62,670 bases of DNA, filler included, from Dimargaris cristalligena (GCA_003614675.1; 6 parts of 6 records of this genome joined end to end with filler, not necessarily neighbours in it), one strand, 5' to 3'. Shown: positions 20,849 through 60,330, counted from the first letter of the whole stretch. Notes: a model not told the origin generated them from the letters alone. Numbers and translations are program-made.

Positions 20849-20948
20849 NNNNNNNNNNNNNNNNNNNNNNNNNNNNNNNNNNNNNNNNNNNNTTAATTAA
20901 TTAANNNNNNNNNNNNNNNNNNNNNNNNNNNNNNNNNNNNNNNNNNNN
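20849..20948. other. Artificial contig linker
   Basis: N-TTAATTAATTAA-N spacer. Confidence 0.98.
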
Positions 20949-31305: not shown

Positions 31306-31405
31306 NNNNNNNNNNNNNNNNNNNNNNNNNNNNNNNNNNNNNNNNNNNNTTAATTAATTAANNNNNNNNNNNNNNNNNNNNNNNNNNNNNNNNNNNNNNN
31401 NNNNN
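31306..31405. other. Artificial contig linker
   Basis: N-TTAATTAATTAA-N spacer. Confidence 0.98.
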
Positions 31406-34400: not shown

Positions 34401-37122
34401 TTCCCCGGTCGACCGGTAATCGGTATCCCCCATTGTTGGATCCAAGCCGATGGGTGAAGTTTGATTAGATACCATGAGGGCCGAGAACGACTCCCCCCCG
34501 GGCGCTGACGGGAGAAAAGGTGGGTATTGTGGGGATGGTATCAAGATCCGATACGGTGGCGATCGGGGTAGCTAACAGCGCCTGGTCAAGCGGTACCACT
34601 GTGGTAAGTCTCGGAGTTCGGATGGAGGTGCTTGGACTGGCGGAACGAATCGGGTCGGCCAATGTACGGGCCCCTGTCCCAGACACACCAGGGATATTGG
34701 GAATGGATTCGCCTTCGGCCATAGAAGATACCGAGGTTGAGGCTAAGAGCTGATTCTGAATACCCTCACCGGACCACATAATCGAATGGTCTAAACTGAC
34801 GTGTGGAGAGGTGGTGAAGTACTGTTCGTCCAGTCCCAACGAATAAGTGGACGGGAATCGTTCAATGGGTTTAGGGGACTGGGCTAGCTCAATACAACTG
34901 GAGTCCGAACTCTGACTCAAGCCTGCCCCACCGGCGCCATGATCGGTGGACATCCACGGCGGACGGGGACTATGGGCAGTCGGTCCGGAGGGCGGGGTTT
35001 GCGAAGGCGGGGCCACGACCAACCGGGAAAATTTAGGGGGATGGGGTTCAAAGAAAATTTGTTTAACCCCGTGCTTACGGAACGTGGGTTGGTTGGTCTC
35101 CACGAGAGGCAGGGCCACATTTTTGGCACGCACCGCCGCCTCTCCGGTCAGATTATAACCAAAGGTGAGGTCAATCCACGTGTGTAGCCGGCTGGAAACA
35201 TGGTCACTCTCCAGGGCCGCGGCGTGCTGGGCGATGAAATCTTCGGGCGACGTGGCCCAGTTGGGGAGTTGTAGGTCCGGCATATCCAGATGAATCGATC
35301 GGAACAACCCGGGATCAGTGTAGAATTCGGGAATACACTCGTCGGGGGTCCAGTCGTAGAGGCGGGCCAGAGACTTAGGGTATTCGTGGGGCTCGTAGAT
35401 GGATCGGACAAATTGGCACAGGACGGCGACGGGCGTACGGCGGGCCGTGTATACGAAAAAGGTAATGTCGGACAAGATATCCGAAATGTGGTGTGGAGTG
35501 GGGCCTTCGAAGGTAAAATCCAACTGCTCGTCCCCTTTATTGATACGAAACTTGGTTTTGCTAAAGTCCCGCCAGTGGCCCACTATGCTATCCCCGGTAA
35601 AGTCGGTGATCCAGGGCAGAATAGGGTAGAAATTGGGGTCCCCCACGCGGCGCCCGGCGTAGTGATTGAGCAGCATCAAGTACTGGAAATTGGATATTTG
35701 GCCCTGGGTCCAGAGACTAACCGGATGGGTCGGCGGGGGGGACCGCACGAGATGCAGTGGGGGTGATGAACCCCGAATTTCGGGGAGTCGGCTCGGGATG
35801 GGGGCCAAATCTCGAAGGTGAACCCAGCTATGCTCGTCCACCCAAATGTGGGCGGAATCCAGGTGCCCGAGGTAGGCCCCCCGGTGGTGTAGGGCGGCTA
35901 ACGATCGAGCCACTTGGTATAGAATAAAGGTTCGACGTGAGTCTTGCTCAACGAATTTGGCCGAAAAATTTAGCATATCGGCTAAACTCACGGCATGGTG
36001 GTGGTACAAAACAAAGTGGGCGGTTGGCCCTTCAATGACACAGAGCGGTGTGCCAAAATTGGAAGCCTCCGGGAATGCAAGTGGCGGTTTGATGTTGGGT
36101 TCCCCTAAGGATAATGGCTCAAGGACAAGCGTCTGATCGGACGCATCAACAGTTAAGGACTCGGAGGACACGCTTTGGGAGGGGTGGGGTGGGTCCCGAA
36201 TACGGAAAAAGGGCCGGTGGGCGAAGAGGTCGCGCAAAAAATGGTGGAAATTCCCGGCCAGGGACATAGATTTAGCCACGGATTTGGAGGCCGCCTTCGT
36301 CGGTGGGCTTGGGTGGCCGTGAACCCCCTCAAGGAATGCTTTGGCATGCTGGGGCAACAATGGTTCGGCAGTCTGGTGTAGAGATGGCCGGGGTTGATTA
36401 GGAGTGATGGTGGGCTCCGATGAGCCAGGCGAAGGTGGTGGTTGAACCTTGGGAAACACCGCAATATCAATGGCCGCAAATGAAAATCGAGGCCGTTTGC
36501 CGGAGGAAGCCTCGGGGCCTGTGGGCTTGGCTGATGGATAAGGCCACTGAAATCGGGACAGCTCGGTTAATTGGCTCATTGAGGTGGTCGGGGTTTGGGC
36601 CATTGGTGCTTCACCCGGCGACGGTGGTGCGTCACTTGGGGAATTGCTTGGGGGCCGAAGCAGTAATTTTTCGAGCCATCCATTCTCGACCTAAGGAAGT
36701 TAATTAGTAAAATACAGATAGGTAGAATGGGCCGGCCGGCAAGAGGTCTGTTAGGGGTGTTGCAGAGCCAGGCAAGGCTTTAACGATAGGTAAGAACAAG
36801 CAGTGGCTGGTTGGACTTTACCCCAAGCTTAATAAAAGGGAGTAGCCGGAATAGCAGTGTCAGGGCGACCAGTCACCAAGCCAGCCTTCAGTCACTGTGA
36901 CGGCCTCAACATTGCGTAGGTCGACTGCCACATTGTGGCGAGGAAGCCAGGCTCAGTTGCTCACCTGGAGCCACTTCCAAACAACTGGATGGGTTTGAGT
37001 ATACTTACAACAGCACACACTGAGATGGGAAGGTCATCGGAGCGAACTGAGTTGTATACGAATGCCACGTCGATGCCCAATTGGTTTTCGACGAGCTCCG
37101 CTAGGGACGAGGTTTGGGCCAT
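31406..37122 (-). CDS. WDR81: WDR81-like pseudokinase-BEACH protein, 3'-truncated by the contig end; exon 1 37122-37009, exon 2 from 36690; frame change near 34500
   Basis: FILYQVARSLAALHHRG (pseudokinase), WTQGQISNFQYLMLLNHYAGRRVGDPNFYPILPWITDF, KFRINKGDEQLDFTF, YEPHEYP, WTPDECIPEFY, LHTWIDLTFGY; exon 1 LAELVENQLGID resembles the WDR81 N-terminus. Confidence 0.85.
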
Positions 37123-37903
37123 GGCTAATACTTTCCCCTGGGGAAACGATAAAAAACTGACGTTTACGGACAAATATGTTGAGAGAAAGTAGTGAATTGG
37201 CCAAAGGAACTGTTCTAAAGAGGGAGCAGTGTGTAATAGCGGAAAAGAAGGACGCTTGGCCCTGGCTCAGGGTCTATAGCGCGACATCTCGTATCACCCG
37301 TGCATGGCATAATGAGCCCACCTCGGCTTCTGAGGGATTCTATTTTCGCAGGCCTTGTTTGCCAGCTACGTATCACCTACCCTTGGGCCTATTCAGCGTC
37401 TCTGGGAGAGTGACTAAGCAGCTAGACTAACATTTTCAGAAGGGACCCCCTTTGGTGACACCAGTCTAACGTGGGTTGCTATAATTGGTGATTGGCAAGT
37501 AATATAGAGTAGTAGTATTAGCCACTACGCCCATTAGGGGCGCTTGCAATACATATAGGGTAAAGTAGGGAGTAGCTACTGAGGTGTAAATACAAAAAAC
37601 CCATCGGAGTTACGCCTAACCGAGTCCTCGTTACAGCGGTATATTATAGGCCAGTTGGCTTTACATTTCCAACAGGGCGTAGAAATAAAAGGCAGTAGCT
37701 CAGTTTGGAGGAGCGTCGGCCAGGTATTATAGCACCCACAACCGCTCGAAATAGTACATCCTCAGCTCGCTCAAAGGGTACCCCATTCTCTAGTATTCCC
37801 ATTTACACTTTCTCCCTCATCTGGCTTGAGACAACAGCGCACCATTCTCTAACGCCTTACATCTGCAACCCAAACCGGCCGCTGAAGTCGAACTACGTCT
37901 GCG

Positions 37904-40900
37904 ATGCTGCAGGAAGAAGAGGACCGCGTCGTAATAACCTGTAAGTCCGGCCTCTCGAGCTCATCCCACCCGCATTTCTCCACCAACAGCCATAAACCAC
38001 CCACCCATGGGGAAACGACAGATTGGGGATGGCCATTCCGCACTGGACATGAGCCCCGGGGCAATGCATACCTCTACTTACCAACTCCTTCGAACCCTAC
38101 TCGGTTATTTAGGAAGTTCAATTAACCTCTGCCCGCTCACGCCATAAAACTGTCCTACTACCATTCCCGCCTCGCACCAATAGATAAAGATGACTTTCGA
38201 ATTTGGCCATCCATAAAACACGACTTTATGTCGTATCTCCCGCTTCGCCATGTCATCTGTCGGTCGGCCCAGCGTATCCCCCTCAAATTCATCCCAGCTC
38301 TGCCGGTCCATATGATCCCCATTGCATCGGACGACCAAAAATCGAAGAGCGTGCCCAATCTTCTAACCACCGAGCCCTATCTCAACCTTTACTTTAGCCA
38401 TTGCGAGGTAAGTGTGTCCTTCACGGACCAAGACCCGCCTATCCTTTTCGAAAAAAGGCCCTTGCAGAGAGTGGACCCCCCTAGTACACTACCACACCAG
38501 CATATCCGCTTTCTAACGTTGCCAACTTAATATATTTCTATCAACAGGATGCCGACACCTATCGCCAGTTGGTCAAAGCCAAAATCCAGGAATGGCTCAA
38601 CCAAGTTAGCGGCCGTAAGAACCAGGAGTGGTTGATTGTTCACGTTACCCGACGCAGCGGCGATTCCCAGGCCAAAACCGCCACCAATAAGCTCTTCCCT
38701 CGCACTGGTTCCGTGATTGACAAAATCCGGGCCGATTTCAGCCCCAAGAAGGACGAACCCCGAATCCTTGCGCTAAATTTCAGCGACTCGGGAGGAATGG
38801 ATATGGAGTCCTGGAGCGAAGTATTTACCCGGATCAAAGAGTGTGTGGTTACTGGGTTCAATGGCCAAATTACACACTACGAGGAGGATGTGCGCCGGCT
38901 CGATGCCCAGCGCATGATGCCGGGTTGGAATTACTGCACGTTTTTCATTCTCAAGGAAAAAATGGTCCGGGCTTTCCAAATGATGGGTATGTATGATGAG
39001 GCCCTAAAGCAATACGACGAACTGGAGGCCGCCTTTTTCCAGGTTCTCAAAGACCGTACCCTGTCTTGGTTCAGTAGCTTCGGCGGTACCACCCCCGGCG
39101 ACGACAATACCAACCTGCTTGACTTTGGCAAGAAGAACTACCGGGAATTAATCCTACAGAACAAAATCACCGTGTTTGATTTCCGGATGTATCTATTCGG
39201 CCGCCAGTGCCAGCTACTTATCCAACTGCAGAAAACCCGGGAATTTCTGGAACGAGCCCGGAAATTTGTGCCTAGTTTTAAACACGCCATGCGGGAATTC
39301 GAAAAGGGCCTGTCGCCCATCTTCTTGTCCGCTTGGACATTTTCAACTTGCAAAAACGTAGTCGATGTGTGCGAATCAATACCTACCGACCCTGTCCCCA
39401 CCGACGCCCATGAATCGGCCGAAATCGCCGCCATCAAAGCCGAATTTCTGGGCAACGCCCGCATTCAACTGGATACATTAGGCATACATTTTAGTGTGCT
39501 GCCCAAGTCGTTGGAGTCAACGGTCTTGCCTAGCTCCGCATCCCTCTCCCGCCCCCGTTCCACTAATTCCCTCCCTGACGCGACCGCCGCCGATGGCGAA
39601 TCCCCACCTAAACCCGAACCCGAACAACTGGCTAAAATCAATCTAGACCGAGAGGCCATCTCCAACCCGGAACTGACCCATGGCCTCGAACAGCAAGCCA
39701 ATTTCGACAACCTCTATGTAACCATTACCAACAAGGCTATTCGGTACTGCGAGGACTGTAAACGGTTCCGGTTCGCCCAGGCGCTGCGCAGTAATTTGGC
39801 CAACCTCTACTTTTACCGGGAGGCCTATGCGGAAGCCTCGGCCATTTATGCGGCCCTCCTACCGCCCCGTACCCAGTACCCCCCGGCCTCCCCCTTGGAA
39901 GCCGCCTTCCTCAAGAACCAAATTGTGTGTCTCCACAAGCTGGGCCAGTGGGAAGCCCTCTTCCGCGCCTACCACCACCTATTGGTGGATCCGGAAACGG
40001 TCCTACGCGATACCGACCGGTTGCACTGGGGACTGGCCCTGGTGAAGTGTGCCACGCAGCTACCCCATACGCTGGAGTGGTCCGGCTCCGATTTATTTGA
40101 GATTGTGGTTCAACAGGTCTGCGACTCTTCCCCCGGTCAGTTGGGTATTACGGTCCGGGTGCTTAATCGATTGGCCTGCTCCATGTCAATCGACCAACTG
40201 CGCGTCCATATGGTGGGAGGTGATATCAGCCACGACCTCTGGTTCCGCTCCGATGCAGCCCGCCTGGACTTACTGTCCGGTGAGAACGAAGTCACTTTAT
40301 GGACCGCTGACTCCGCGCCCGGGGTATATGCAGCCGAATTCGCCGAGCTGCGGCTAGGCCAGGCCCGGTTCACCTACAAGCTCCTGCACCAAACCCCCAA
40401 AACCGTATTCCGGATCAATCCCCACCCCCTCGTTCCTCCCATTCAGGTCGACCTTCACCGCGTCCAACTTGCCCAGTGCCCCACGGTATTCACCCTGACC
40501 CTCACCGTTCCTAAAGAAGGTATCCTGGGCGGTCAATTGGAAGTCATCCCCCTGGACTATGTACACAAATCGTCCCTCCATAGTCGGTTCATTCAACCCC
40601 AAGACTCGGCCAAGATGGGCCTGGGGTCTCGTCGGGGTCGACCCGCGCGCCTTCCCACCCCCAAGGGCTATGTCTTGTGTCAGTACGTTACCCAAGGGGC
40701 CGGGACTTTCCGTATTATTACCAATGAGGCCGATGGCCCCCTCTCGGCGGGTACCAGTCCCCGGTCATCGATATCTTCCCAAAACATGGAACCCGAGCGT
40801 AGTGACGCAAACCCGTCCAATAAATCGCCCCGGGTGGTGGCCGTGGCCCCCGATGCCACTATTCTTATTCAGGGCCGCTGTTATCTAGCGGAGTCGCTGG

Positions 40901-41765
40901 CTACACCGACTGCTACTGCTCGCGAGATCTGGCTGGAACTCGACACGAAAGGCCAGATCAGCCTCCCGGCCCTGGAACCGGGTACGAGGCTTGAAATCGA
41001 CTTCCTGTCCCGGTATCCGACGACCGACCATGGCAAATGGATTACCCTGGCCCGATTCCAAATTCCCGCCCCAGCCGCCTCGGCGCTGGATAACGAAGAC
41101 CAGCCATCCCAAACCGACTTAGAACATACCCAGCGGCTAATCCACACCGTGGATATGCGCACCCCGCCCCACGTTCGTTTTGCTCTGACCCCCACGGCCG
41201 TAGAGGATTCAGGGGCCTTTCTCAAGGTGACGACTACGGCTCGGGACGACAGTCCCTTATTTTTACACGGCGTCGAAATCATTTCACGCCCCCGGTCACC
41301 GACCCACCGGGTGGCCTATCAAGTCACCGACACCCACGCTACGGACCTCTACCGTACCCTTCATCAGCCTCTGGTTGGGGGCCGGGCCTCTACTGCGGTG
41401 TTTCGACTGCGCTCGTCTAACCCGGCGGACTCCCCGGACGGAGGGGTTAGCCCAACAGAAGGCCCTTCCACCACGTTCCCCACCCCTTCCTTAGTACCCG
41501 TCTTTGCTGACCTGCCTGCGATCCAATCATCACCCCTTTACTGCCGAACCCGGTACTGTACTCTGGTGGACTTGGCCGCCCACTTGGTCCGACAGAACCT
41601 CCAGAAAGTCCTCCAAGCGCAACATCTCGATGCCCACTATCCCTTCCTGGTAAGCCTAACCGTTCGGTTCATTGACCAGGCGGCGCAGCTGGACCATTTT
41701 CTACTCACCGGACAATTGGCCTACCGACCCTTACACTTAATCCAAATCGCACCCCCGCATGCCTC
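37904..41765 (+). CDS. TRS130: TRAPP II subunit Trs130/TRAPPC10, 3'-truncated by the contig end; exons 37904-37940, 38184-38407, 38548->41765
   Basis: LPLRHVIC, PYLNLYF, DKIRADF, YEEDVRRLDAQRMMPGWNYCTFFILKE, ALKQYDELEAAF, ITVFDFRMYLFGRQ. Confidence 0.92.
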
Positions 41766-41865
41766 NNNNNNNNNNNNNNNNNNNNNNNNNNNNNNNNNNN
41801 NNNNNNNNNTTAATTAATTAANNNNNNNNNNNNNNNNNNNNNNNNNNNNNNNNNNNNNNNNNNNN
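41766..41865. other. Artificial contig linker
   Basis: N-TTAATTAATTAA-N spacer. Confidence 0.98.
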
Positions 41866-41990
41866 GAAGTTCATCCAAGCTGTATAACGAAAAATCCATT
41901 AGATGGGGCCAACATTACTGGTTAAAATGGCTACTCTTCCATACACAAATCATGTAAAATGGTATACAGCTGGCTTGAATTTCACCCATA
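41866..41990. mobile_element. MITE-like element, copy A (left end cut by contig edge)
   Basis: Ends GAAGTTCA..GCTGTATA and TATACAGC..TGAATTTCACCCATA are imperfect inverted repeats; aligns along its length with the reverse complement of 42324-42465. Confidence 0.7.
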
Positions 41991-42323
41991 TTACTTATTA
42001 TATAAGCTGATTGATCCTCTCCCAGGTGGAATACTTTTTGGAATAAATGATGCAATGCCTCTTCATTAAGTGACTATATCAAAATTATACGAGTAGCCGG
42101 CCCTGATAAGTCCAATACAGTCTAAATGGCATGGAGCATGTGGGTCATCATATGGACTGACTAGTGGCTCCCTTCCCCAATCTCTGAAATATGATATAGT
42201 ATCTTTTGTATGGATATTTATGACATATCCGTGACTGTAGGGAAATTGATAAGTATTCAGACTACTGGTAGACAAAGTCCCAGAGACATACTCACCCACC
42301 AGCTACTCTCCATTCAGGAAGTA

Positions 42324-42465
42324 TATGGGTGAAGTTCAGCTTGGTTGTATAAGGTTTTAACTGTTATGTGTGTGGGAAAATCAGTGGGATGTTTATTTTC
42401 AACCAGTAGTATTTGCCTTATCAAGTGGATTTTTCGTTATACAGCCTGGTTGAACTACTCCCATA
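42324..42465. mobile_element. MITE-like element, copy B (inverted relative to A)
   Basis: TATGGGTGAAGTTCAGCTTGGTTGTATAA ... TTATACAGCCTGGTTGAACTACTCCCATA terminal inverted repeats with TA at both ends. Confidence 0.72.
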
Positions 42466-44721
42466 TTGACTGCAACCCGTCTTACTAGCGGATAGATAGA
42501 CAAGTTACTTACTATCACCTTGGAATGGCTGGAAAGGCTCCCAGTATGAACCACTCGAAAATAGTTTGCTCATGCTTAGGCTAATTAGACCTGAAATCGT
42601 GACAAGGGATCCCAGCTTCACAAAGCAGTATTTTGTCCAACCGTCCCATTTCCCAGGTCAAAGTGCGGGTACAGTGCCAGTATATGTAATGCCTACGAGT
42701 ACCCACCTATATTTACACAAAAACCACTCGGACCATGAGTATTGGATTACTAGCATACAACGGGATAGATTGCAATATGCGCAAGACCTTAATCCTATTT
42801 AAAGGTCCCCACCGAATTGCCTACCTATTGGTATACTAAAACAGCTACTGTCTGGGGACTGCGTGATATAGGCTGATACGCCCTCTTGGAATGTATAAGG
42901 TCACAGATAAAATAATTTCCAAAACCAGCCCGTAATAAAAAGCTAAGGCGCAATTCTCATCAATTTTTTTTATAGTAAATCTACTGGCAAAATCATCAAA
43001 AATGGAATAGCCTTATGAGACAATTCACCACAGTATTTCCATATTTACTCACCGAGATATTTGGCGAGATTAAATGAAAGGTTCAGAAATTCGAGGTCAT
43101 TGGGCACATTCACATGCCCCCAAGCTATTCTATGACAAGCCCTTAAGCAAAGTGCCATACTAAATATGACTAAAAACTTGTCCATATGTTACCCTTGGAT
43201 ACTGGCCGATTTGGACATGGATCGAATGTTAGGACTCCTAACAATCTACTTCATGGCTCACTTACAATGTAAATACTGTATTTTGCCCTTGGTTTTTGTA
43301 CCATCACTTACAGTAGGTCTGCGAATGGGGTTAATTCTGTAGGACTGATGAAGGTTCATCCGGCCAATAACATAAATCATGATGTACTGAAACAATTGCC
43401 AATAAATCACCCGACAATAATTCCTGGTTGAAGTGAACGGAAAAACAGGGAAAAGGCTGATGTAAGAAGCTACAGCAGAATGTGCCGTTGGAATGGATAA
43501 GACACCATTAAGAAGATCATTGGTATCGCCCTTAGGCGACTTATTTAGAAGGTGAAGCGAACATTAATGTAGGGGGCTTATTGATTTACAAGGCAACAAA
43601 GGGTTGGTTTATGGCCAATCCCCTTGTTTTGTACTTCATTATATTGATTGGAAGAGCTGCTTTGCATTGCCGCTAAGGAGTGGGCTGCCATTGTGACAAG
43701 GTCCGATTATTCCCCTGCGAATTGGCATTGATCACATAATACACGGGACATGGATAATTCAGGAATGGCTATAATCTTTCTGATACAGGTCACTACTATC
43801 CTGTCTCTTACAGAAAAATTAGGCCTAAGATTGTGAGTATATAAAGGTGTGGACACCACCCCTCCAAAGTTCCATATCAAGTAGCTTTTCCAGTCTGATA
43901 TAGCAACTCTTACAAGCGATATATACCGATGGCCTATTCTTCGATCTCAACCACACCTTTTCCAGGCCAACAGCCCCATACTACCCATCCTTGTCTTGTC
44001 CACCACAATAAACCGGGTGGCAGGACCTCTGCAGTAATGCAGAATGAAAATCTATACAGCCGTCCCTCTTCAGGTGGCACTACCCATCCCGATATGGCAT
44101 TATATCGGGATTACGATACCCGGTGGCCACAGGCACCCATCATTCGCTGGCCACCAAATGGCGAAAATTTTCCCAGGGAATAAACATTCCCGGGATTTTT
44201 CCTTACTAATCAGCGAGTGATTTTAGCTGGTTAGCACATTCTTATATCGGTGTAAATCATTATCTTTGGATAATTTACAAATATTCCCAAGGGATATCGG
44301 CCTTTTTATATTGCACATTCAGTCTAGATTAAGAAACTTTTAATGACTGGACGGTAATTGAATCTGGCCAGCAGGGAATATTGCTTGCTATTAAACCATA
44401 TATTAAAGGCGCCCTCAGTCATTGAGAAGAGTATTATGTGGCCCATTGTATGACAGTGCTATGGCGTTGGTATCGCTCGCCATATTTCTATGTCTGGGCG
44501 CATTATTTACAGTACAATAGTCACTTTCTTATAGATATTTTGGCCATTCTAATATCTACAAACGCATTTATCCTTTGGTAAATATGTTCATTGCAATCTT
44601 TTACTGCCTCCACACAAATTCCGGGCTATTAAAATGCCAAGTTGAAGAACGACCACACCTACCTGTTAATTCATATCAACCATAAGTATAAAATTCCAGC
44701 GACCTTTTACTATTTTATTTT

Positions 44722-44725
<4 letters not shown>

Positions 44726-44754
<29 letters not shown>
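44726..44754. repeat. (TA)n microsatellite
   Basis: Perfect TA run of about 14 units; shorter runs at ~8650, ~23281, ~25377, ~47085. Confidence 0.9.
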
Positions 44755-45867
44755 CCATTTTCCATCAATTTACTGATTTACTAATATTATTGTCCACATC
44801 GCGTTCCCAAAGAATATGCATACCTTCTTTACCATGCATATCGGCCCTTCTAAATAAACACTCTTTCCTACTCCATATTGTAACATATCAACAGTATTAA
44901 CCTCTATTACACTACCCCAAGACTCTGAATAAAGACACTTCATATAAAAAAAATCATGGCTTTAAAAGTACCAAACACGCAGTATGTGACTTGGCACTAT
45001 GTTAGATTCACCAGGAGACAATTTTTAGGTTTTCATAGTCGCAGTAAATGATTTATTGTTTCCTCCTCGTGCGCTTTTTCCCATGCGTGAAAGTATAGAT
45101 GGCTTTGTAGAAGTATTTACATAACGCATATTAGAATGCCCGGCCGTTAAGCAGAATAGAATAGACCTTGTGGCCAACTTCGCACGATATTGCATTCATA
45201 TATATGTTAAAAGGTCACCGCTGCCCGGGTGTTGCCATTTCACTCTTGCGCCATTATAATAACTTTTGATATTTCAAGCTGTATATCTTTAATACTTATG
45301 TAGAGAGTCTAGGTTTCCTCATGTGGATGTCTAATTTTTTAACCTATACCATTTACTCCCGGTTATCATTCTGGGCATAGCGTCTTCGAGAAAACCCACT
45401 TTTATTGTAATGATCATTTCTTATATATAGGCATCTCTAACCACCCTTTACATACCTTTCACACGGGGGGCGTCCATTGACACCACTCTTTGAAGAATCG
45501 CATATGATTTTCCAACCGTGTTCCAACTAAGCCCAACTCGGCATGAATTATAAATCGCTTACTTCATAATCACCATAGTCGCAAATTCCAGCCGCCAGAC
45601 ATCTATCCAATCTCTACTCTATATTTATCTTTTTTAAGAAAAACAGTATAATTGGTCAATTGAGGCTATAATAAGTTTACTAGGACAGTATTTTGTCAGA
45701 CCTGGCATAAAAGTTAACCCTAATTTAATAATTCAACCCTATTCAAAGATATGCTGCCAATTTGCGAGTGTATTCGAAATGTCGCCCTTGAATCCATTTT
45801 GGCACCCATAGTATCGAATGGCAACAATGCGCCATGCCTGGCTCTTGATCACAATCTTCCCACATGC

Positions 45868-47335
45868 CTAATTTTTAGATGACAGTTGGTAGGGCTTAGG
45901 GGCCCAAATCTTCAGTACCCCTTCTGAAGTTGCTGCCTTCTCGACTATACCAAGCGGCTCGGCCAGTGCGAACGGGGCTGCGACATGTAGATCGCCACTT
46001 TTATCGAGCCACTGGTTAATATTGTCTATCATAAATGCACCCATAGTGGAGGGGTAACATGTGGTCGACTTCTTCCAGTGTTTAAGAAGATTGTCCCTGG
46101 GGACCTCTAGTTGGGCAAGATCTAACGACGTCACAACCTTACAGTAATAATCATTTAAATCATCAAACACGCGCTTGCGGGGGAGGTATTTAGCTACGTA
46201 GCCTTCCACCTCGGTGATAATGGTGGTGTTTTTTTCGAAAGCTGCCAGAGTGATGATGAGAGTAGCGTGACTTTCCATATAACCGAACAGGCTGTTTTGG
46301 ATGAATGAATAGGCGGGTAGACTATCTAGAGCCAACATGGCCTTGGTAAAAAAATTGGTGATGTCCTCGAACTGTCGGTTGCGATACATCCGCCACAGGC
46401 CAATGGTCACAATGTGGTAGCCAATGGTAATAAAATGGCTGGCACGGTCCTGCGAAGACACGGGGATACTCATTTGCAGGTTGCCGAACATATCCGGGAT
46501 TTCCATATCGGACGTGTGTATTTTTTGCGTGACAACCAACACTCGCATAATTTCCCAGAGAGTAGCGCCGGTAGCATGAGTGGCAAGCGGGAATGCCGCT
46601 CCCATCAGGTTGCCTTGAAGTTTGGCGAGGTTAAGAAACACCCGCTTATCTAGGTCAGGTCTAGTTGTCGCGCTAACGGAACTGTGCTGGCTGGAGGTTG
46701 GGCTTGGCGCCTTCTTGGACCGGAAAAGACTCCTGCTGAAAGTGCTCACAGAGCTACCCTTAATGGTGCTGATCAATTGACGTGATTGACTAACCGGGCG
46801 ACTCACGAACTTCCGCACGTTATCGCTGGCCTTATCCAGTATCACATCCCAAGTTTCTAGGCCGGCCAGAGTATTCAACCGGCGCTTGAATTCTTCCCAA
46901 ACTGCTGGATTCCCGTTAGACCCGAGATTTCGGAGTACATCCTGAAAGTTGCCCGTGGACTGTAGTTGCGGTGTATGTTAGGTATATACGAAAAAATAAA
47001 AAAGAGTCAGTGACTAAGCCCAAATTCAAATGAGCATTGGGAACGGCCATACAACCATAACCGATAACTAAATCTAAATCAATAATATATATATATATAT
47101 ATAACAATAAGTTTCAACCAACCTTTACTTTGGTATGCTTTTCGATGGTGGAGGTATCCTGGTATCCGTTAACTTGGGCCTGGTGGGGGTTTGGGGTAGC
47201 GTTGAGGTTTTCCTGCATCGACATTTGCTGGCCTTCGCCCCATCGGCGCGTGAGCTCACCGGGATAGGCGGTGGCTGTTAAAGCAAAAACAAAGAGCGAG
47301 GCCGCCCCTAACAGGGTAATCTGATATGTGACCAT
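45868..47335 (-). CDS. Orphan putative secreted protein, distant relative of 18036-19541; exons 47335-~47123, 46959-45868
   Basis: Signal peptide MVTYQITLLGAASLFVFALTATA plus Kex2-like LTRR; phase-0 donor, CCTAAC branch and CTACAG acceptor join in frame to the 336-aa ORF; TATAAAA upstream at ~47500. Confidence 0.72.
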
Positions 47336-48430
47336 TTTGTAATGAAGGTAAAGGAATGATAAACGAGAAGCACGCTCTAAAGTGGGTATAGCGAACCAAA
47401 ATAGTGAAAACAATGTTTAGAGCAGAAATATCCAAAACTCATAAAATGATAATGAATGGGGGGGAGCATGGCAAGCTGGTAAGCGAACCGGCCATTTTAT
47501 ATACAGATAAAAGAGCGGCGGGCTTGGGGATATACCATGCCGCTACGCTTGAATCATTTTTTTTTTCAAATCCACTTGATTCATTGGCCACATAATTAAG
47601 GTGGAGAGGCACTAGGTTTGGGTGGTTTGGCCACGCCTCATCTCTATAACTATGAGTTAAAACGTAGTAGTAATAGCTGGCTAGGATATTCAATTGGATT
47701 GAGGGGCCATTATTCTAAGATTGGTTGGTCTCTCGTTCCCTTTTCCTGCTACATCAAATCCAACGAATATCGGGTGAAATTATTAATTTCATATGTGTAA
47801 CCACACCACCATTCCTCCCCATTTCCCCCTTGTACGGATGTAGGCCAAATTCGAAGTACGCACACGCGCAGAAAAGGGAAATAAATCTTGAGCCCAGTTG
47901 CACTGTCTGGTTCGCGTAGGAAGAGAAAAGGAGAGAGTATGTGCAGCCTTGCTCATTCCTCTTGTATTTAACCGACGGTGCGGCAGAAAACCCCAACGCC
48001 AATCTTTAGGCCCTCCTATTTGGTAATGGCTATACGCAGCCTTCCCGCCTCGTCAGCATTGATTTACGCCACAAGTAGTACAATGTAGCTGGTGACTTCC
48101 CTGCGCTACTTCAGTTTTAAAAATATTAATATGCCTCTATACATCCATAGGAATTGCTTGGCCGTTACTAAGCATGTATAATGTTTAGTGTCTGCATTCA
48201 GCAATGCCCCTCAGGTCATTTCTGGTGTAAATATATAGGTGACCGACCAGCTTCATTCAACATATACCATACGTGTAGCCCATCTCTTATGTTCAATTTA
48301 GTATTATATATAGCTAATAAATTGCTGAAACACATGCCCTATTGTTCATATTATTATCGCCTGTTTCTGTCCAATTATGGTAGTTTATTTAATTACACTA
48401 GGTCCATTGATTCTGTAGCGCTGCTAAGTA

Positions 48431-50350
48431 CAGTCATGGCCAGCAAAAATGAGACACCCAGCCTTTGCATAAAAAAACTTACATTTCAATTTAATGTATC
48501 TACTTATATACTGAACTATTTAAAGTAAAAATAATTACATTTGAAAGCCAGGACAAAGTGGAATATGCTGATTTAATATTAGGTTAGACCACCCTTAGCA
48601 TCAATCACAGCCTGGATTCTACTTGGCATGCTCTCAAAATATGGTGCCAGGTAGGTAGTATCAATAACTTCCCATATTGAAGTAATAATGTGTTTGGCTT
48701 TATCCTGGGACCAGTAGCCTAGATACTTCTTCGCCAGATACATATTTATCTAAGCCCAGATGTGTTCTATGGAACTTAAGTCAGGACTTCAAGCAGGCTA
48801 ATACAAGATTCATATTTCTTCTTAGATAGCCATACTCTCACCATTTTGGTTGTGTGTATTGTTACATTATCCTGCTAAAATATCACTGTATAACCTTCCT
48901 TAATAAGGTTATTGTCACCTGGGTTTACCACTCTTAGTCCATTAAGAGTCCCGAGGATAGGCTTCTAATAGTGGATGGGACTTAGGATTGGTCAAGCAGG
49001 TCCTAGTACTAGATAAGGGCATGGTACTAACTAATAAAGGTTTACTGGGTGTAGGTACACACACGGGCTGTGCAGCAGGCACACTTACTAGTCAGTATAA
49101 AGGAAGTGAGCATATATAATATTTATTGGGATAAACTAAGGGGTCAGAATAAGCTAACCTATTAAACCAGTCCCAATGGGGACTGGTTATATATATACAG
49201 GGGATGCCTCCAAAGGGAGGTCCCCAGGGGGAGGTATTACTAAGACTAATGGTATGATAAATAAGCCAGCTGGATGGCCATGATGACTTGGAAGACTCTA
49301 TTAGGAACTGGAAGAGTCATTAGATTAGTACAGGAGTAATTAGTGTGAACTAAAGAGTCCAGCAGGGGAATGGTTATATAATATAGGATGATCCTATAGT
49401 ACCAGGGGTGACTATAGGAAGGTTAATATGGCACTATAAGGCCTAATAAGGGTGGGCAATTGTTATGTCCAGATTAAGTTGGATTAGGGGGGCCAACAGT
49501 TTTCAATCACCAGAATTATCTGGTCCTTTAATATAGCCAAATAGATACTGCTAACCATCTCTCTTTGCTAGATGGGCATGGTAATGGGCTTCTCTAAAAA
49601 TATGATATTAGTCTTACCAAAACTGTGGATTTCCCCCCAGACCATAAGGGATTTTCAGCTAGAATTGAATGTTAGCAGAAGGTTTTAAGGTGCATAGGCC
49701 TGACTGGGCCTTCAGAGTACTCTTTAGTTTGCATAGGTATTTCCAATCCAAAACAAACTTTCATTGAAAAAAAAGACAGATTTCCACCTTTCAATACCCT
49801 AATCTTTTCACTCTTTTTCAAAATTGAGGTTCTTGATCCAGTTGGTAGGTTATTTATACAGCTTCTTTCTTACTATCTGGGAATCTAGATTGGCCTCCTT
49901 TAATGCCCTTCAAATTATCAATTGTGATATACTCTAGCCAGGAAGACAATGGCCATAGTGCCCTGATTGGTATTAAATGGATGGGCTACTACATCTAACT
50001 AGTCTGCATTTGGCATAGTTGTTGAGGATCTTATTACAGCCCCCACATTACTTAGGAACCTTTAAGCTGGCATTGTCACTTGCTTTTATTATCCAGTAGT
50101 CTGTAGCTCACAAGGTACTAAGAATGTGCATAGTTGTTGGGACTTTTCCTCCCTCTTTAGTCATGTTGCAGATAATATCTCATTTCTTAGAGGATAAATG
50201 GATATATGACATGATAAAGAGGAGACATAAATTAATCAATTATGGTATAATATATTTAAGAAGAAAGAAACATGAATGTAGGAAATTGGGGCTCAATATG
50301 TAGCTCCCCATTACATTAATTTTTTGTCACCCCTTTTCTGGCCATGACCG
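48431..50350 (-). mobile_element. Decayed Tc1/mariner (DD34E-type) DNA transposon with TIRs and TA target duplication
   Basis: TA|CAGTCATGGCCAG.AAAA at the left end and TTTTCTGGCCATGACCG|TA at the right; minus-strand relic motifs WKSVFFFNESLF, SLMVWG, F*QDN..IHT, *PA*SPDLSSIEHIW, SMPSRIQAVIDAKGG. Confidence 0.92.
48887..49430. mobile_element. ~540-bp insertion nested inside the Tc1 transposase (solo-LTR-like or non-autonomous element); boundaries approximate
   Basis: Interrupts the transposase between the MVWG region and FQQDN; starts TGTATAACCTTCCT and ends AGGAAGGTTAATA (inverted), with an inner TGTCACC..GGTGAC inverted pair and several internal hairpins. Confidence 0.6.
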
Positions 50351-50694
50351 TAGCTTTATTAGAGCAAACATGAGTGGGATCTTATATCTTCCACTAAAAA
50401 ATTGCCATAGTATATTTGACAGCTTTACTTATTATTAAATATTAATATGTAAATGTTACTACAAATGGTAGCATAAATAATATTAAAATATAATAGCTAA
50501 TAATACACATCCAGTGAAATCAGAAGCATGAACAGAAACTAGGTGAATATAAAATTGCACAGCGATCTTTATTTATTAATCAAGTAAGGGCTTCGAAATT
50601 CAAATTCAGTGACTACCGCAGGCCTTAAACGGCTACAGGCAAGTAACATGTTGGTTTAGTAACTGGGGTTGGATGAGGTGTCGCTTGGGGATTA

Positions 50695-51688
50695 TTAACC
50701 AGATTTTAAATTATATGAGGTAAAGACATCTCGAACCCGTCGGTTAAGTATATCCCAATGTTCGGTCATTGGGATTGCTGTGATCGTCACATTATCACCA
50801 AGGGTCTTGTTGGCCTTCTCAAGGGCATCACAGTCATAACCACCATCCTTATTGGTAAATGTCTGGTAACTCATTTGTTTTTTTACGGGGTCAAATGAAA
50901 TGCCGTATATGAAGGACGGCCGAGTTAACATTGGTACATTGTTGGTAATAAACCGGCTTAGTCGACTTTTAAAGCCATGACCGGTGTTCGTTTTTTCCGC
51001 TACTTTTTGTCGATAATTTTTTGCATGCGTTTGGATAGCAGATATAGTCGTTTCAGTTCTTTGCTTATTAGTAGCCCGGTGGTTAATTTCTTCAGGTTGA
51101 AATAATGCATGGGGGTATTTCACAAAGGCCAGGTCAAAAAGACGTCCACAATACTCGTGGTTGTGTTCTGTGGGCTTGATTTTTAGTTTAGCCCGTTCAT
51201 TCACTATAGCACGTGCCGAGTGCTCCCAGACTTGGCCATCGAAAGCGTCGTCTGTCTGAGTGCTAATAGGCATAGCCAGCGGGGCTTGGACATTCACAGC
51301 GATTCCCAAGGCGTTTCTTGCGGGGTTGGAGTGATAATCAGTTACACTTTGCGTCGATAGAGAGTCCTGGAATTGCGAGGACGTCTCTCCGTTCACGGGC
51401 GGACCAGCGATCTGATGGCGGTAGACGCTGGAGGTGGATGGGTTGACCGGATACTCGACATGTCCATAACGGACAGTACCAGTACTTGGGTTAAACGTGG
51501 GGCTTGAGGTCCAGCTCATTGTAGCTTCAGCTGGGCTAATGTCTGATCCCCGGCTGGCCCTGGCTGGTGTACGTAGTTGCCAATGGGTTGGGGACTCGGA
51601 GGCCTTGAGAAGCAGCCCACACTAAATTAGAGGATGTAGCCAACAGCCACGCTAAGGATAGAGTTACCTTCGGGAATACTTGGACCAT
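50695..51688 (-). CDS. Orphan protein; the signal-peptide-like 5' segment is out of frame with the main ORF (frameshift or 46-nt intron)
   Basis: 274-aa ORF 51519-50695; upstream ATG 51688 gives MVQVFPKVTLSLAWLLATSSNLV; TATAAATA at ~51815-51822. Confidence 0.55.
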
Positions 51689-52220
51689 TATTGAGTCGGG
51701 AAACAGTTGATAAACGGTAGGGGCTGGGTAAAAGAGAGTGGCTGACGAAGTGGGGAGGGATATAGGCAGGACAGAGTAGGGTTTATTCGAGTGAGCTGGG
51801 AGGAAAATGCCGGCTATTTATAGAGTGCCACATATAAATAAAATAGAAGTGCTGCTTTAGTTTATCAGGGAGGACCATGCTGTATACTTGTTGTGATAAT
51901 CACTATATTTAGACTGGCCTAGGTTCAACACGGACGGAAAGACTGAATATTCGGTGGAGGTGGACGTGTCCCAATATCCTGCCTTATTACCCCATGGTTT
52001 TTGAGTGGTTTGTTCCCCCATGCGTGGTTCCACGGAATATCACAGAACTGCTATTGGAAGACGATTACCAAGGTAATTATTTTATCTCCCATTAGCCTAT
52101 ACTATAGTGGGTTTGTAACGGTTTGGGTCGAGTGGGACCTATGGGTTAACCGATTTGCCAAAAGGGGTAAGGATTGACAAAATAACAAGGTGCCGAGTTG
52201 GGCAAAGAAAGCTTCTAAAG

Positions 52221-52320
52221 NNNNNNNNNNNNNNNNNNNNNNNNNNNNNNNNNNNNNNNNNNNNTTAATTAATTAANNNNNNNNNNNNNNNNNNNNNNNN
52301 NNNNNNNNNNNNNNNNNNNN
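52221..52320. other. Artificial contig linker
   Basis: N-TTAATTAATTAA-N spacer. Confidence 0.98.
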
Positions 52321-52435
52321 TGGTGGTGTCGGCCATCAACTAATGATTGACGGATTCCCCGATTCGAAAAAGATTGAATAAATATCATTATGCTATATAT
52401 AAACTGTACTTCGTAATAATTTATCACGCCCACAA

Positions 52436-54503
52436 TTATAATGGTCGCAAATTCAACAGGATGACCAATATTAAGGGGATGTACAGGTTATCGTTTTGGT
52501 CCGTTAGAGCTTCCCCGATTGCCGTGATGGTTGTACTCATGATAAACCAGCTTGCTCCACTAGGACCGGCGCTCGCTTGGAATGTCGGGCTAAGTGAAAG
52601 AACGCCGGTCACGATAAGGACACTCAATGTGAATGCCACGGTCCCCTCCACCGTCTTTCTACTCCCTGGCCAATGGTGTCGCCCCCAGGCGGACTGCCCG
52701 ACTATCGAGGCGGCCGCGTCACCGAGTCCTAGGGTGAGAATACCGGCCAGATTGGCTATGGGGTGGGAGGTTCGAAGCCAAATCGGGATCGCACAACCCA
52801 CAATAAGGTATAAATGTGACAGAATTGCGTAGCCCGAGTCGTGGTAGTCGATAAAGGGGATCATAAAGCGGTTAATGGGCTCGGCTAATGGTGATATCCG
52901 GAGTATTCGCGCAAGTTCAATGGATGTCAGGGCACACCAGCCGATACCCATGCTCAAATAAAGCATATCCGGCTAATTGAAATAGTGATAGCAATTAGAG
53001 GGATGGGTTAAAAAACATAAGGATTTTTTTTATGATTACATTGGGCGGTTTAGTGGACTTTACGGGGTTAACTATCGATTTTAGACATGGGGTTCAAACT
53101 ACTACTACAAAGGCTACTTGGCCGGAATAACTTACTGCAAGCCAGTGGCACGGAATAAACATAATGAGAATTAGGGCATGGTAGTACTTGCGACCAAGAT
53201 TGTGCCCAAATCTTGTTTGGAATTTTGGAACTACCCCCGTCGCCCCCCTTAGTTCTTTCGATTCGGTCATGATGTAGCGGATGCCAGCAATGGATAGGCC
53301 GATACATAGTAGCCAAAAAACCGGGAAGATCCGGTGGTGGTTATTCGATCCGAGAAACAGCCATAGCCTATAGCCAAAGTGTTTGGCGGTAATGTTGGGT
53401 AAGCACATATAGGAAATGATAAGGACAACTATAACCCGTGAAAATCAAATTGCTGGCGGTACCATTCGGTCCCATTAAATACGATGGACATACTGGCTTA
53501 TTAGAATGTAGTTCGATTTGTATTTACCATTCCAGGGCATTTTGGCCCATCAGGGCGGTCAGTGTCAGTAAGGTAATTACAAGCAGCCCAAGCCCTAATA
53601 ACCCAAATTGAACCAGGGGCATTATGGAGCCTTCTGACTTGCTCGGCTCCACCCGGCTTGACGGTAAGATATGTACGGCAAGGTACGCTAAGACTATTGG
53701 AAAGATTATCAGGGATTGGGTGGCTACGATTAAGGGGGGGCGCTCCATAGGTACCAGGGGCGCAAGAGCTCCTACCATCTGCATGTGAAAATAGGTGTTT
53801 GGTGGATAGCCAGGTCTATGATATTAGCTCATTAGGGATATACAGATAGAACAGTGATTGATGGAGCAATTAAATTGGCCAATGCACACATAGAAATACA
53901 TTAACAAGCAGTGTTTGGTCTACCTACCCGGGACCCGATTAGTAGGGCTAGGTCACCCCCAACTAAACTGATACTAGCCGAAAACGTGAATAATTCACCA
54001 AGGGTGAAGCTGCCTGGTAGTCGGTGGCCGATGGCCCAAGTGGTGAACCAGAATAGTTCATGGAAAAGTAAAAAGGGCCAGAAATGGCCATCAAATTCGA
54101 CCAGGTCCAGGAAATAGACCAGTAGTGACAATATCGAGATCGATAGGACATGGACTCGTCCCAACCAACGACGGCGATACTGTCCGAACGATGAGCGGGC
54201 AGCTACTCGCCATATAAGAAGGTGAACGAGAGCCGATATACTCAGTAGGGTGGCAACCTTCGACAATTGGTAGAGGTAGGCCTTGGTAAGCTCATAGTTG
54301 GGGTTGTCCCGGTGGGATAGGGAGTAGTCGCGGGTAGTAGAGTATACCACGAGTGGTACGGTGCTTAAACCCAGGTACAGGCCGGAACTTACACCGGGTC
54401 GGCCCTGAAATAGACCAGCGAGGGAAGTCGCTAGTGTGGACGGGGCTTCCGCTGAGAGGGCGTCCGGGTTTAGGCGGTCACTGTACAAAAAGACCGAAGA
54501 CAT
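52436..54503 (-). CDS. SEC59: Dolichol kinase, multi-exon
   Basis: LPGSFTLGE, RKYYHAL, ILSHLYLIVGCAIPIWL, GILTLGLGDAAASIVG, WPGSRKTVEGT, QNDNL (CTP-transferase motifs). Confidence 0.92.
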
Positions 54504-54921
54504 GGTCACAAGTGAGGGTGGAAAAGGGCATGTCGGGTTGCTATACAGAAAGGTTAATCTACATAGGTCCGGAGCAGTCCAGTGGCCAAATATATTTTCC
54601 TCGCTCCGTTCGGGCTGCATTCCGACCGACCTAACCGAGAAAGTTGTAAAAAAGGCCGGGGAGAATTTCTACGAGAATAGAGACGATTTCCCCCCGCCTA
54701 TGCGGTACTGCTATGAGTGTAGTGAGATAGGAGGTAGTCTATTGTTTTCATGTACCTTGGCCGAATCTATAGCTGACTGCTTCCCGTACCACATTTTGCA
54801 ACTCAGCATCCATAGTTGGTTTGACCTTCCTTCTCTGATAGACACGATTCCTACTTCCTGGTTCTCTAACATCCCCGTTCTCTATTCGACCCCAGTTCCG
54901 TTTTTCTCTGCTTCTACCAAC

Positions 54922-56838
54922 ATGCCTCGTGAAATTATTACTCTGCAAGCGGGCCAGTGTGGTAACCAAGGTAAATCGCCCCACCTTCTCACTCATTAGC
55001 CATCTGTTCGCCGAACCAAAACCCTGCCGGCTAGACACCAACACTGCCATATGCCAGGGCATATAGTACGGGCATCGCCGAAGTCCCTCCCAACACTCAA
55101 TCACAGGGACCCTGTTGGCCATTTGGTGCTTTCACTCACCACTTTATATGCACCGAAACCTCTCCATGTATATACAATTACCCAGTCGGTACCGAATTCT
55201 GGTCACGGTTATGCGCGGAACACGGGATTAGCCCGGACGGCACTCTAGAGGATTTTGCTACCGAAGGTGGTGACCGTAAAGATGTATTTTTCTACCAGGT
55301 AAGAGGTCAATATGATGCGTATATGTTCCAATGTTAGCAATCTTAACATCGTATATGCGAGGAAGTTCTGTTACAGATCGCCTCTCTTTAAAAGCCATGG
55401 AATTGTGGATGGACTCTGTAATTAATTTAAAATGCGCCTTGGTATATCAACTACACTATCTCCAATAGGCCGATGACGAGCACTACATTCCCCGGGCACT
55501 TTTACTAGATCTCGAGCCTCGAGTAAGTTACCGCCGAACTCTTTTTATTGGTTCGGTTACTAATGCTCCCCCCCTATATTCCAAGATCACCAGGTCAATC
55601 CGCGGACTTAATAACTGTGTGGTAAACCCGATACCGTCTGATACCCCATCTTCCTTTCCCCGCTTCATATATATCCATCGAATACCCAGGTCATTGATGG
55701 TATCATGACCTCGCCCTACGCCCATCTCTACAACCCGGAAAATATTTTTTGTTCGAAAGACGGCAGTGGGGCTGGTAATATCTGGGCCCAAGGGTACGCC
55801 CAAGCCGAAAAACTATGCGAAGAAGTACTTGACATGGTGGACCGTGAGGCCGATGGTAGCGATTCCCTGGAAGGGTTCACGCTATTGCACTCAATTGCGG
55901 GGGGTACCGGTTCCGGTATGGGCTCGTTTTTGCTGGAAAAACTCAACGATCGCTACCCTAAAAAACTCATTCAAACCTACTCAGTGTTCCCCAACAACGA
56001 AGAAGTGTCGGATGTTGTGGTCCAACCGTACAACAGTATGCTCAGTTTGAAGCGCCTGACTACCAACGCCGACTGTGTCGTAGTGTTAGACAATTCAGCT
56101 CTAAGTCGGATCATTGCCGACCGCCTCCATATCCCTGACCCCTCTTTCTCTCAAACCAACCAACTGGTCTCTACTGTGATGGCGGCGAGCACTCAAACCC
56201 TGCGCTACCCGGGCTACATGAACAACGACCTGGTGAGTATGGTGGCCTCCCTGATCCCTACCCCTAAATGCCACTTCCTCACCACCTCCTATACCCCCTT
56301 TACGAGCGACAATGTCGAAAAGGCCAAGACTGTTCGTGTAACGACCGTATTCGATGTTATGCGCCGACTTTTGCAGCCTAAGAACCGGATGGTGTCGATC
56401 GCGTCGTCTAAACGCAATTGTTACATTTCCCTCTTTAACATCATCCAAGGTGAAGCGGACCCCACTGAAGTACACAAGTCTCTACTGCGCATTCGGGAAC
56501 GCCGGTTGGCCCAATTTATCCCCTGGGGACCCGCTAGTATCCAAGTTGCCTTGACCCGCAAATCACCGTACATACCCACCGCCCATCGTGTGAGTGGCCT
56601 CATGTTGTCCAACCATACCAGCATTGCATCGTTGTTCAAACGAACCATCGACCAATACGACCGGCTCCGTAAACGCAATGCTTTCCTGGATCAGTTTAAG
56701 CGGGAGGCTATGTTCTCGGAGGATCTGGGCGAGTTTGATGAGGCCCGTGAAGTGGTGCAGGATTTGGTCAATGAGTATCGGGCTTGCGAAACCCCTGAAT
56801 ACCTGCAACATGGCCAATCCGGTACGGATGGCGCCTAA
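54922..56838 (+). CDS. TUB4: Gamma-tubulin; exons 54922-54970, 55186-55298, 55469-55522, 55690-56838
   Basis: [83 protein letters not shown]. Confidence 0.98.
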
Positions 56839-57862
56839 ATTGATGGCTAAGAATTACTCTATATTACATTGCCTATATACCCACATTTCGACATTCCAAC
56901 GGATCCCAACCTTAACCCAAGATAGCCCTTGGCCTACTTTACAGCTGTCTATAATCCGGATTGACCATCTGGTTAGGACAAATGGACCCGGAAAACATAG
57001 ACATTCCTTGGGCTCAGGGATTATACACTTCAAATTTCTATACAATTCATAGTCTGTACTATTGCCTATATCCACTCTCACTAATCGTATAATTGCTAAA
57101 AATGACTATTATTTAACCCTCCAGTAAACTACATTTAATATCTCCAACATTGCACTATATTGCATAAGACTCTTTTAATGTGTTCGTATACCTTGCTATT
57201 TGGTCAACAATCGCTTAGCCTAGCCCCAACTAAATACGAATTGGATAGCAGTGGGGCAAGACTAAGTGCATACCCGCTGCCAGTAAAAATACACGTCAAA
57301 TTACGATTGCGGGGCTACCTTATGCCCTATCTTTTGAGCAAACAGCCCTGGGAGACGGAAATCGGGTTTCGGGACAGGAGGGAGCAAGTATATAAGTTAT
57401 TTACAAAATTCGACAATAGATGGAGTGACTGGCCTACTATTTCTTAGCACAGGTACTGTTTTTTTTTTAACAATTTCACTCTCGAATGGGCTCAGTTGAT
57501 TGCTGTGAGAAGTCTGGCAAAGTGTTTACGGGTTCTTCAAGCGATTTCTACTAGTATTAATTATAATGTAGGCCTATCATTGGCGTGAGTTTTAGTGATT
57601 GCTTCTTGAAAGATGCATTTTACTACTGATTAAACAACCATTGTTTAGTTGGTGTAGTCAAGTAAATCTGCCACTTTATATATAGAGCGTAGGGTGGAGA
57701 AACACCAACGAATACAGGTCCGTTAAACAATATTTGAATAATAAATAATTTGGGGCCTGTTCTATCCAATTAATTCCAAAAATACGGCCCAGATGGTAAT
57801 CAAGTACAATGGTGGAGGGGCAACGATAAGCTGCACGAAATGGAATAGGAATCAAATGTAAA

Positions 57863-59755: not shown

Positions 59756-60330
59756 GATAGCGCTTGTCAAACGGGACTCCCTAATGGTGGTGGCGGTGGG
59801 TCACAGACGAATAAGTGTATAAGTAGAGTTCAGTAAGATCGCTGGAGTGCCGTCGCAGCGCTGACTTGCTTTTCTGGGGGAGGGTTACGAACCTACATGC
59901 CCTCGGATTCTTGTAAGTTCAATTTGGGGGTTCAGTGGAGTCTTTCAGTTAGATTAGGCGCGGAGTAGCGACGTAGCGTGAAGTTATTTTGGTCACCTGA
60001 CGGTGAGGAGCGTATCGAACCGGGATAACCACCACCTCCTTCGATTCTAATGGGCCTGTGCTAACCACCCCTGCTGATGACTAAGGGCTACCTGACGCCT
60101 GGCTAGGCAAGGACATCAGATGGGCGAGGCCTAAGAGTCGGAGCTTGTACCTCTCTGTATGAACCCGGTTTATCCGCATTCCTAATACCTTCCAACTCCC
60201 TTGTTCCATCCAGCGACTAGCCCATTTATTCCTCCATTATATTTGCCTATCCAATTCCTTATTCCTTCGTTGTATACTATAAAGAACGCATTGCTTCCAT
60301 CTAGTACCTACACAGCCCTTCTCAAGCACC

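Follow-up and report, generated by a model that had tools for sequence, protein, structure and literature searches.

Genes and features of the window

Gene B occupies positions 45868-47335 on the minus strand of the window, which is the whole stretch of DNA analysed (62,670 bases), and its product belongs to an undescribed, species-restricted protein family. The parts of the gene and of its product are as follows, with coding potential given as a simple codon-usage score in bits per codon.

47335, minus strand: start of gene B (ATG)
47129-47335, minus strand: exon 1, 69 codons, +0.392 bits/codon in frame
Extending to 47123, minus strand: exon 1 in the second annotation, 71 codons
46960-47128, minus strand: intron, phase 0, with GTAAAG donor, CTAAC branch and CAG acceptor
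45871-46959, minus strand: exon 2, 363 codons, carrying the family domain, +0.292 bits/codon
45868-45870, minus strand: stop
47267-47335, minus strand: signal-peptide-like N terminus, residues 1-23, ending A-T-A before YPG
46837-46866, minus strand: AGLETWDVIL, the copy in B of the family motif APLETWD, with L103, E104 and D107 invariant in six of six members
46663-46800, minus strand: Ser/Thr-rich linker, residues 123-168, pLDDT <50, predicted disordered
46567-46593, minus strand: FPLATHATG motif, F192 and P193 invariant
46336-46395, minus strand: WRMYRNRQFEDITNFFTKAM motif, W258 and A276 invariant
46240-46263, minus strand: TLIITLAA motif, A308 invariant
46075-46113, minus strand: QLEVPRDNLLKHW motif, W364 invariant
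45973-46017, minus strand: NQWLDKSGDLHVAAP, the family motif at the C terminus, a beta hairpin in the model with strands 385-387 and 393-398

A preliminary description of this DNA had presented gene B as a two-exon gene with a phase-0 intron, and this model is borne out, the spliced product being identical, letter for letter, to P0003 (432 aa, 'hypothetical protein BJ085DRAFT_31519', Dimargaris cristalligena), which is recorded on a contig of 10,355 bases. The intron has negative coding potential in all three frames, and a (TA)n microsatellite lies inside it at window positions 47085-47103. The corresponding model in a second D. cristalligena assembly, P0015, comprises 434 aa and is identical at 431 of 434 positions, departing from P0003 by one Ser/Thr change and by two additional residues at the exon junction, the latter because the donor GTTGGT, 6 nt further on, is used. 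Since the two models match in this way, the two annotations concur on both the two-exon architecture and the hydrophobic N terminus.

The contig that carries gene B (10.4 kb) is gene-poor, with two ORFs of at least 120 aa and 39-46% GC. Its sole other ORF of that size, 308 codons at 50698-51621 on the minus strand, lacks any Pfam match at E<=0.01 and is perhaps a further orphan.

The window is not one locus, being composed of six pieces of about 10.35 kb each that are split by five pairs of N runs.

1-10375, 10476-20848, 20949-31305, 31406-41765, 41866-52220 and 52321-62670: the six pieces
10376-10475, 20849-20948, 31306-31405, 41766-41865 and 52221-52320: joins, each of paired runs of 44 N

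Since the pieces are separate contigs joined by N, distances across them are without genomic meaning. Gene A (18036-19541, plus strand) and gene B lie on separate contigs, in agreement with the earlier description of the two as unlinked.

Gene A and its putative first exon

Gene A lies behind housekeeping genes, a 5'-nucleotidase and Rft1, and its surroundings and parts are arranged as follows.

12528-14429, plus strand: upstream neighbour, 5'-nucleotidase/metallophosphoesterase
14938-16854, plus strand: upstream neighbour, Rft1 flippase homologue (E 3.9e-136)
18036-18257, plus strand: putative exon 1, 74 codons, with the signal-peptide-like MKVANSIFALAFASA followed by an F-box-like stretch at 18141-18245
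18258-18473, plus strand: putative intron, 216 nt, phase 0, with GTAAGT, CTAAC and AG at 18472-18473
18474-19541, plus strand: main exon, 355 codons (18474-19538) plus stop, +0.365 bits/codon

The architecture of gene B had been attributed to gene A as well, and this attribution holds in part: the 355-codon exon 2 is real, whereas exon 1 finds no support in the public model. The only database model of A, P0004 (357 aa, on two contigs), starts at the ATG at 18468, 6 nt upstream of the main exon, and does not include exon 1. Across 18018-19541 on the plus strand, an upstream 135-codon frame and a main 371-codon frame lie in one frame, with a single TAA between them. The putative intron takes out this single in-frame TAA (18423-18425), and its acceptor AG at 18472-18473 is the first AG after CTAAC. 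The coding potential of the putative exon is weak (+0.124 bits/codon), yet the expected frame scores best; the putative intron, read in frame, scores -0.081 bits/codon and the upstream DNA -0.193.

The contigs of two DNA runs show no difference from the contig of gene A across 15007-20671, and all 14 substitutions and both indels of the second sample's contig fall at or before 15006. Nine of these 14 substitutions and one of the two indels fall within 12569-15006. As 15007-20671 is identical in the second sample, the TAA at 18423-18425 is no artefact of assembly, nor does polymorphism inform on exon 1. Either splicing removes the TAA or it closes a separate ORF lying upstream, and on present sequence grounds we lean somewhat towards the exon 1 of the preliminary description as a plausible part of gene A.

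Members, range and size of the family

A phmmer search with P0003 over 1,835,955,588 representatives recovered six proteins at E<=1e-3, comprising B and five paralogs (E 1.4e-15, 7.9e-10, 1.2e-9, 1.7e-6 and 3.3e-4). The members, B, P0010, P0011, P0012, P0008 and P0009, are all from D. cristalligena and are found in both of its assemblies. The lineage specificity that had been claimed for the family is therefore upheld for the libraries searched by phmmer, in which five of five relatives belong to this species. The divergence that had been claimed is strong, the paralogs being 22-25% identical to B with 20 invariant columns among the six, and, since each paralog lies on a different contig, the family is dispersed rather than tandem.

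The description of the family as large is not established: six clear members and A were found, a count that rests on single-sequence search. Word-index searches with the exon-2 products returned the query alone (one of 2453 and one of 3648 candidates), and a profile search over the 8000 top word-sharing candidates returned B and A but missed the known paralogs, which makes it uninformative on size. Additionally, of 40 matches to the APLETWD pattern in a metagenome scan, none was confirmed by tblastn. PMC9866270 places the genome at about 20-30 Mb and names other Dimargaritales genomes, those of Tieghemiomyces parasiticus, Dimargaris xerosporica and Dispira simplex. The chance that one of six other dispersed members would fall in the remaining ~52 kb of the window is about 1%, so that divergent A-like members overlooked by single-sequence searches may be numerous.

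Across the family, the proteins measure 388 to 508 aa and contain 0 to 2 Cys, or 6 in the case of P0009, and no Cys position is invariant. The invariant positions are nearly all hydrophobic or aromatic, with the addition of E104, D107 and R175, and none is His, Cys, Ser or Lys. Among the family motifs are an N-terminal W...APLETWD, present in B as AGLETWD with W90, L103, E104 and D107 invariant, and a C-terminal QWLDxEGxLHVAVP ... Y, present in B as NQWLDKSGDLHVAAP and Y426.

Some of the annotations attached to the members differ from this picture. P0013 (673 aa), the second-assembly model of P0008, matches HAUS1 over its N-terminal 270 residues (PF25762, E 1.7e-32) and, judging by this match, looks like an annotation-pipeline fusion of two neighbouring genes, one of them HAUS1. 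UniRef names P0009 'F-box domain-containing' and the 508-aa form of P0011 'ER-bound oxygenase mpaB/mpaB'/Rubber oxygenase catalytic domain-containing'; neither name was reproduced by a Pfam scan at E<=10.

Putative export signal

Secretion of the family, as put forward in the preliminary description, is not established; it is suggested by N-terminal hydrophobic segments at five of the seven loci, identified by a hydropathy heuristic. The five loci, which carry such a segment in at least one gene model each, are B, A (in the model of the preliminary description), P0009, P0011 and P0012; their 10-residue Kyte-Doolittle means reach 1.95-2.73 within the first 35 residues, the top mean of B being 2.36, from residue 8. 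Small residues occupy positions -3 and -1 where inspected by eye, the putative signal segment of A ends A-S-A, and a later TM-like segment is absent in six of the seven proteins. By the same heuristic, P0010/P0005 and P0008/P0013 have no signal-like N terminus in either annotation, and at the P0011 and P0012 loci the second-assembly models are without a hydrophobic N terminus. The signal peptide of A hinges on an exon missing from the public model, and whether A would be secreted therefore depends on that exon.

These discrepancies bear on an alternative that we regard as unlikely, namely that the family consists of intracellular parasite proteins, such as lineage-specific F-box-type substrate adaptors or cytosolic/ER scaffolds, in which case the hydrophobic stretches at the N termini would come from wrongly modelled exons or would act as signal anchors. 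The lack of a hydrophobic N terminus in the public model of A and in what the second assembly gives for P0011 and P0012 points in this direction, as do the scarcity of Cys in the proteins, the F-box name given to P0009 by UniRef, and a sub-threshold F-box-like match of A's putative exon 1 (PF12937, 14.7 bits, E 0.027, residues 34-68; Pfam cut-off 24.3). However, the hydrophobic N terminus of B is present in both independent annotations, and five of seven loci carry one. Furthermore, F-box models leave B and the other five members unmatched at E<=1 (B has no match to PF12937), P0009, P0010, P0011 and P0012 have no F-box match even at E<=10, and the putative exon 1 of A is not significantly similar by BLASTP to the N termini of P0009 and P0010 (E 10 and 0.92).

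Relationship between genes A and B

On comparison of the encoded proteins, A is very probably a genuine but very distant relative of the family of B. Under the six-member family HMM, A reaches 26.0 bits with a per-sequence E of 2.2e-10, and a family HMM built without B still scores it at 20.2 bits (E 1.2e-8), whereas the top score among 3000 shuffles of A under the family HMM is 7.0 bits. Of the 93 ORFs in the window that reach 100 aa, none but A and the two exons of B exceeds the shuffles, and none of the remaining 90 ORFs appears within the 12 best family-HMM rows, the lowest of which stands at 3.9 bits. All six leave-one-out HMMs retain the signal, giving A 19.0-31.4 bits (per-sequence E 3e-8 to 5e-12); as the left-out true members reach 137-338 bits (163 bits for B), A is a distant outlier. 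Profile comparison by hhalign, which had been proposed as a check on the relationship, aligns the family with A at E 1.1e-4 over 178 collinear columns, with a probability of just 56%. Both hhalign and the HMM cover the same region of A, confined to the central core.

18756-19316, plus strand: segment of A aligned to the family HMM, A residues 169-355 (in the model of the preliminary description), HMM positions 173-363

Pairwise comparison gives a fainter signal. BLASTP of the exon-2 products of A and B yields 22.7 bits (E 0.012; 27 of 119 residues identical, 23%), and the Smith-Waterman score of A against B, from an alignment in exon 2, is 58, a value reached by none of 500 shuffles of B (36.0 +/- 4.8). 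A is absent among the phmmer matches of P0003 at E<=1e-3.

Five motif pairs had been listed as colinear between the two proteins, and four of them are found in register by BLASTP, hhalign, HMMER or MAFFT: FPILAVATT/FPLATHATG, WYLYKY.../WRMYRN..., RLALVLAA/TLIITLAA and ELHNARQVLIQQW/QLEVPRDNLLKHW (A/B in each case). The corresponding four anchors, FPL, LW-YR...FF..A, ITLAA and ...W, are collinear and similarly spaced in A and B. The fifth, 'F-box-like' pair, EVQLIIGKYADGVTR of A exon 1 with ETWDVILDKASDNVR of B, is unsupported and mis-registered. The ETWDVILDKASDNVR of B is APLETWD, the best-conserved motif of the family, so that reading its ETWD as a degenerate F-box was wrong, and MAFFT aligns it with AGIEVADAW of A exon 2, not with EVQLIIGKYADGVTR. 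The placement of A's AGIEVAD at APLETWD is made by MAFFT only, the local alignments of HMM and hhalign stopping short of it; at the C-terminal motif, the HMM and hhalign alignments end before it is reached, and MAFFT and inspection by eye give different counterparts in A.

It is quite improbable that A and B are helical orphans without relationship to each other, with motifs shared by chance or composition and B alone belonging to the six-member family. Such a reading draws on the modest pairwise BLASTP result, the absence of A from the phmmer matches of B, the intermediate hhalign probability, the one mis-registered motif pair in five, and an AlphaFold model of A made with the family as alignment, which is unusable (pLDDT 38.8, pTM 0.25). 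Against it stand the HMM E values with and without B, the shuffles, none of which in 3000 exceeds 7.0 bits, the distance of the other window ORFs, the persistence of the signal under every leave-one-out profile, and the collinear anchors.

Predicted fold and searches of known families

The claim that the C-terminal fold is undescribed agrees with the searches made, in which no known family or solved fold matches (Pfam, PDB sequences, Foldseek against PDB and BFVD). Pfam gave no match above cut-off for either A or B, nor for the five paralogs, and the family profile found nothing among PDB sequences (top E 0.2). An AlphaFold2 model of B from a seven-row alignment is fair (pTM 0.72, mean pLDDT 68.7, 261 of 432 residues at 70 or above). 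In this model, residues 1-65 and 123-168 are disordered, three helices surround W...LETWD, a helical core begins at about residue 170, and a strand at 175-179 lies beside the C-terminal hairpin (385-387 and 393-398) that bears QWLD...LHVAAP. Foldseek with the B model returned no match at E<=1e-3 in the PDB (best E 1.1, TM <=0.24) or in BFVD (best E 0.024, TM 0.15), and the statement that there is no known fold holds for solved and viral structures only. The ESM Atlas gave no usable feature match for B; for A, its feature matches are below 0.9 and serve as leads only, and its structure rows have TM <=0.35 with poor Atlas models.

It is very unlikely that the family arose as a divergent offshoot of the haem-dependent mpaB/Lcp oxygenases (PF09995) and is hence enzymatic: the UniRef name of the 508-aa form of P0011 and the mostly helical family domain speak for it, but PF09995 matches none of the six members at E<=1, nor P0011 at E<=10, no such chain occurs among the 50 Foldseek PDB matches listed (all E>=1.1, thus none at E<=1e-3), and the family has no invariant His, whereas a His haem ligand would be expected in an mpaB/Lcp-type oxygenase.

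Proposed role

D. cristalligena is a haustorial parasite of mucoralean fungi. The reading that we prefer is that of a candidate effector-like family, species-restricted and fast-diverging, whose exported helical proteins act at the fungal-host interface; taken as a whole chain, we consider it about evenly poised between right and wrong. Gene B encodes a protein of 432 aa that belongs to a small family of dispersed genes with at least six clear paralogs, and A is a seventh, far more diverged relative. These proteins would share a layout in which an export signal at the N terminus is followed by a Ser/Thr-rich stretch, variable and in part disordered, and then by a mostly helical domain of about 300 residues that, in the model of B, appears to be closed by a small three-stranded sheet. 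The product would enter the secretory pathway, where the signal would be cleaved, and would do its work beyond the parasite cell, either at the host hypha or within it. Because the invariant residues are nearly all hydrophobic or aromatic, with His, Cys, Ser and Lys not among them, the domain may be read as a structural or binding scaffold rather than an enzyme, so that the product would be a non-enzymatic binding scaffold, and selection driven by the host would make its paralogs diverge fast. The gene model of B, the family and its restriction to this species in the libraries searched, the distant homology of A and the lack of known relatives are shown; what we infer is secretion, the absence of catalysis and the host-interface role, and the function of the candidate family is to be taken in the same conditional sense.

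A bolder extension of this proposal, which we offer as a long shot, is that these seven proteins represent just the visible part of a far larger superfamily, evolving fast, of helical effectors of unseen fold that a zygomycete mycoparasite delivers to its fungal host. In this picture some members, A and P0009, would bear an F-box-like head after the export signal and would plug into the host SCF ubiquitin ligase. Meeting two members by chance in ~62 kb of a ~20-30 Mb genome hints at many A-like members that single-sequence searches fail to detect. SCF/F-box mimicry is known from bacterial effectors, and we know of no case in fungus-fungus parasitism.

Comparison with known systems

To our knowledge, almost nothing is known of host manipulation by early-diverging haustorial mycoparasites. 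The words 'secret', 'effector' and 'haustori' have no occurrences in the main text of the genome paper (PMC6784888), which describes an axenic medium for the species, and no such family appears in the titles and abstract openings of the papers listed for Dimargaris in connection with secreted proteins or effectors.

Compared with the mpaB/latex-clearing-protein oxygenases (PF09995), the Dimargaris family is alike in having an all-helical domain of similar size and in the UniRef name of one paralog, and unlike in that neither Pfam nor the fold search links it to them and none of its His residues is invariant. The likeness to F-box and F-box-like proteins (PF00646, PF12937) lies in the LPxE...I...L...W pattern of the putative exon 1 of A, with its faint PF12937 match, and in the UniRef name of one paralog; the score of A falls below the Pfam cut-off (14.7 vs 24.3 bits), B has no such segment, and a signal peptide ahead of an F-box is atypical.

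The Dimargaris proteins do not fit the class of small cysteine-rich apoplastic effectors, taken as proteins under ~300 aa with several conserved Cys, in either size (388-508 aa) or Cys content (0-2, 6 in P0009, none invariant), and membership of any named effector family finds no support in Pfam or in the fold search.

Parasite genomes commonly contain orphan families that have signal peptides, and the Dimargaris family, unsurprising in itself, is for that reason a lead for mycoparasite biology and not a discovery. As a family with putative export signals and a modelled domain without a fold match, it nevertheless supplies concrete candidates for the host interface, and its domain is worth structure determination.

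The closest general parallel lies with the candidate secreted effectors that biotrophic fungi and oomycetes possess in lineage-specific families. The Dimargaris family differs from these in that its proteins are large (~390-510 aa) and Cys-poor, carry no known translocation motif, and would meet a host that is itself another fungus; it resembles them in its signal-peptide-like N terminus, its restriction to a single parasite lineage, its dispersed and diverged paralogs, its freedom from Pfam domains, and its gene-poor, lower-GC setting.
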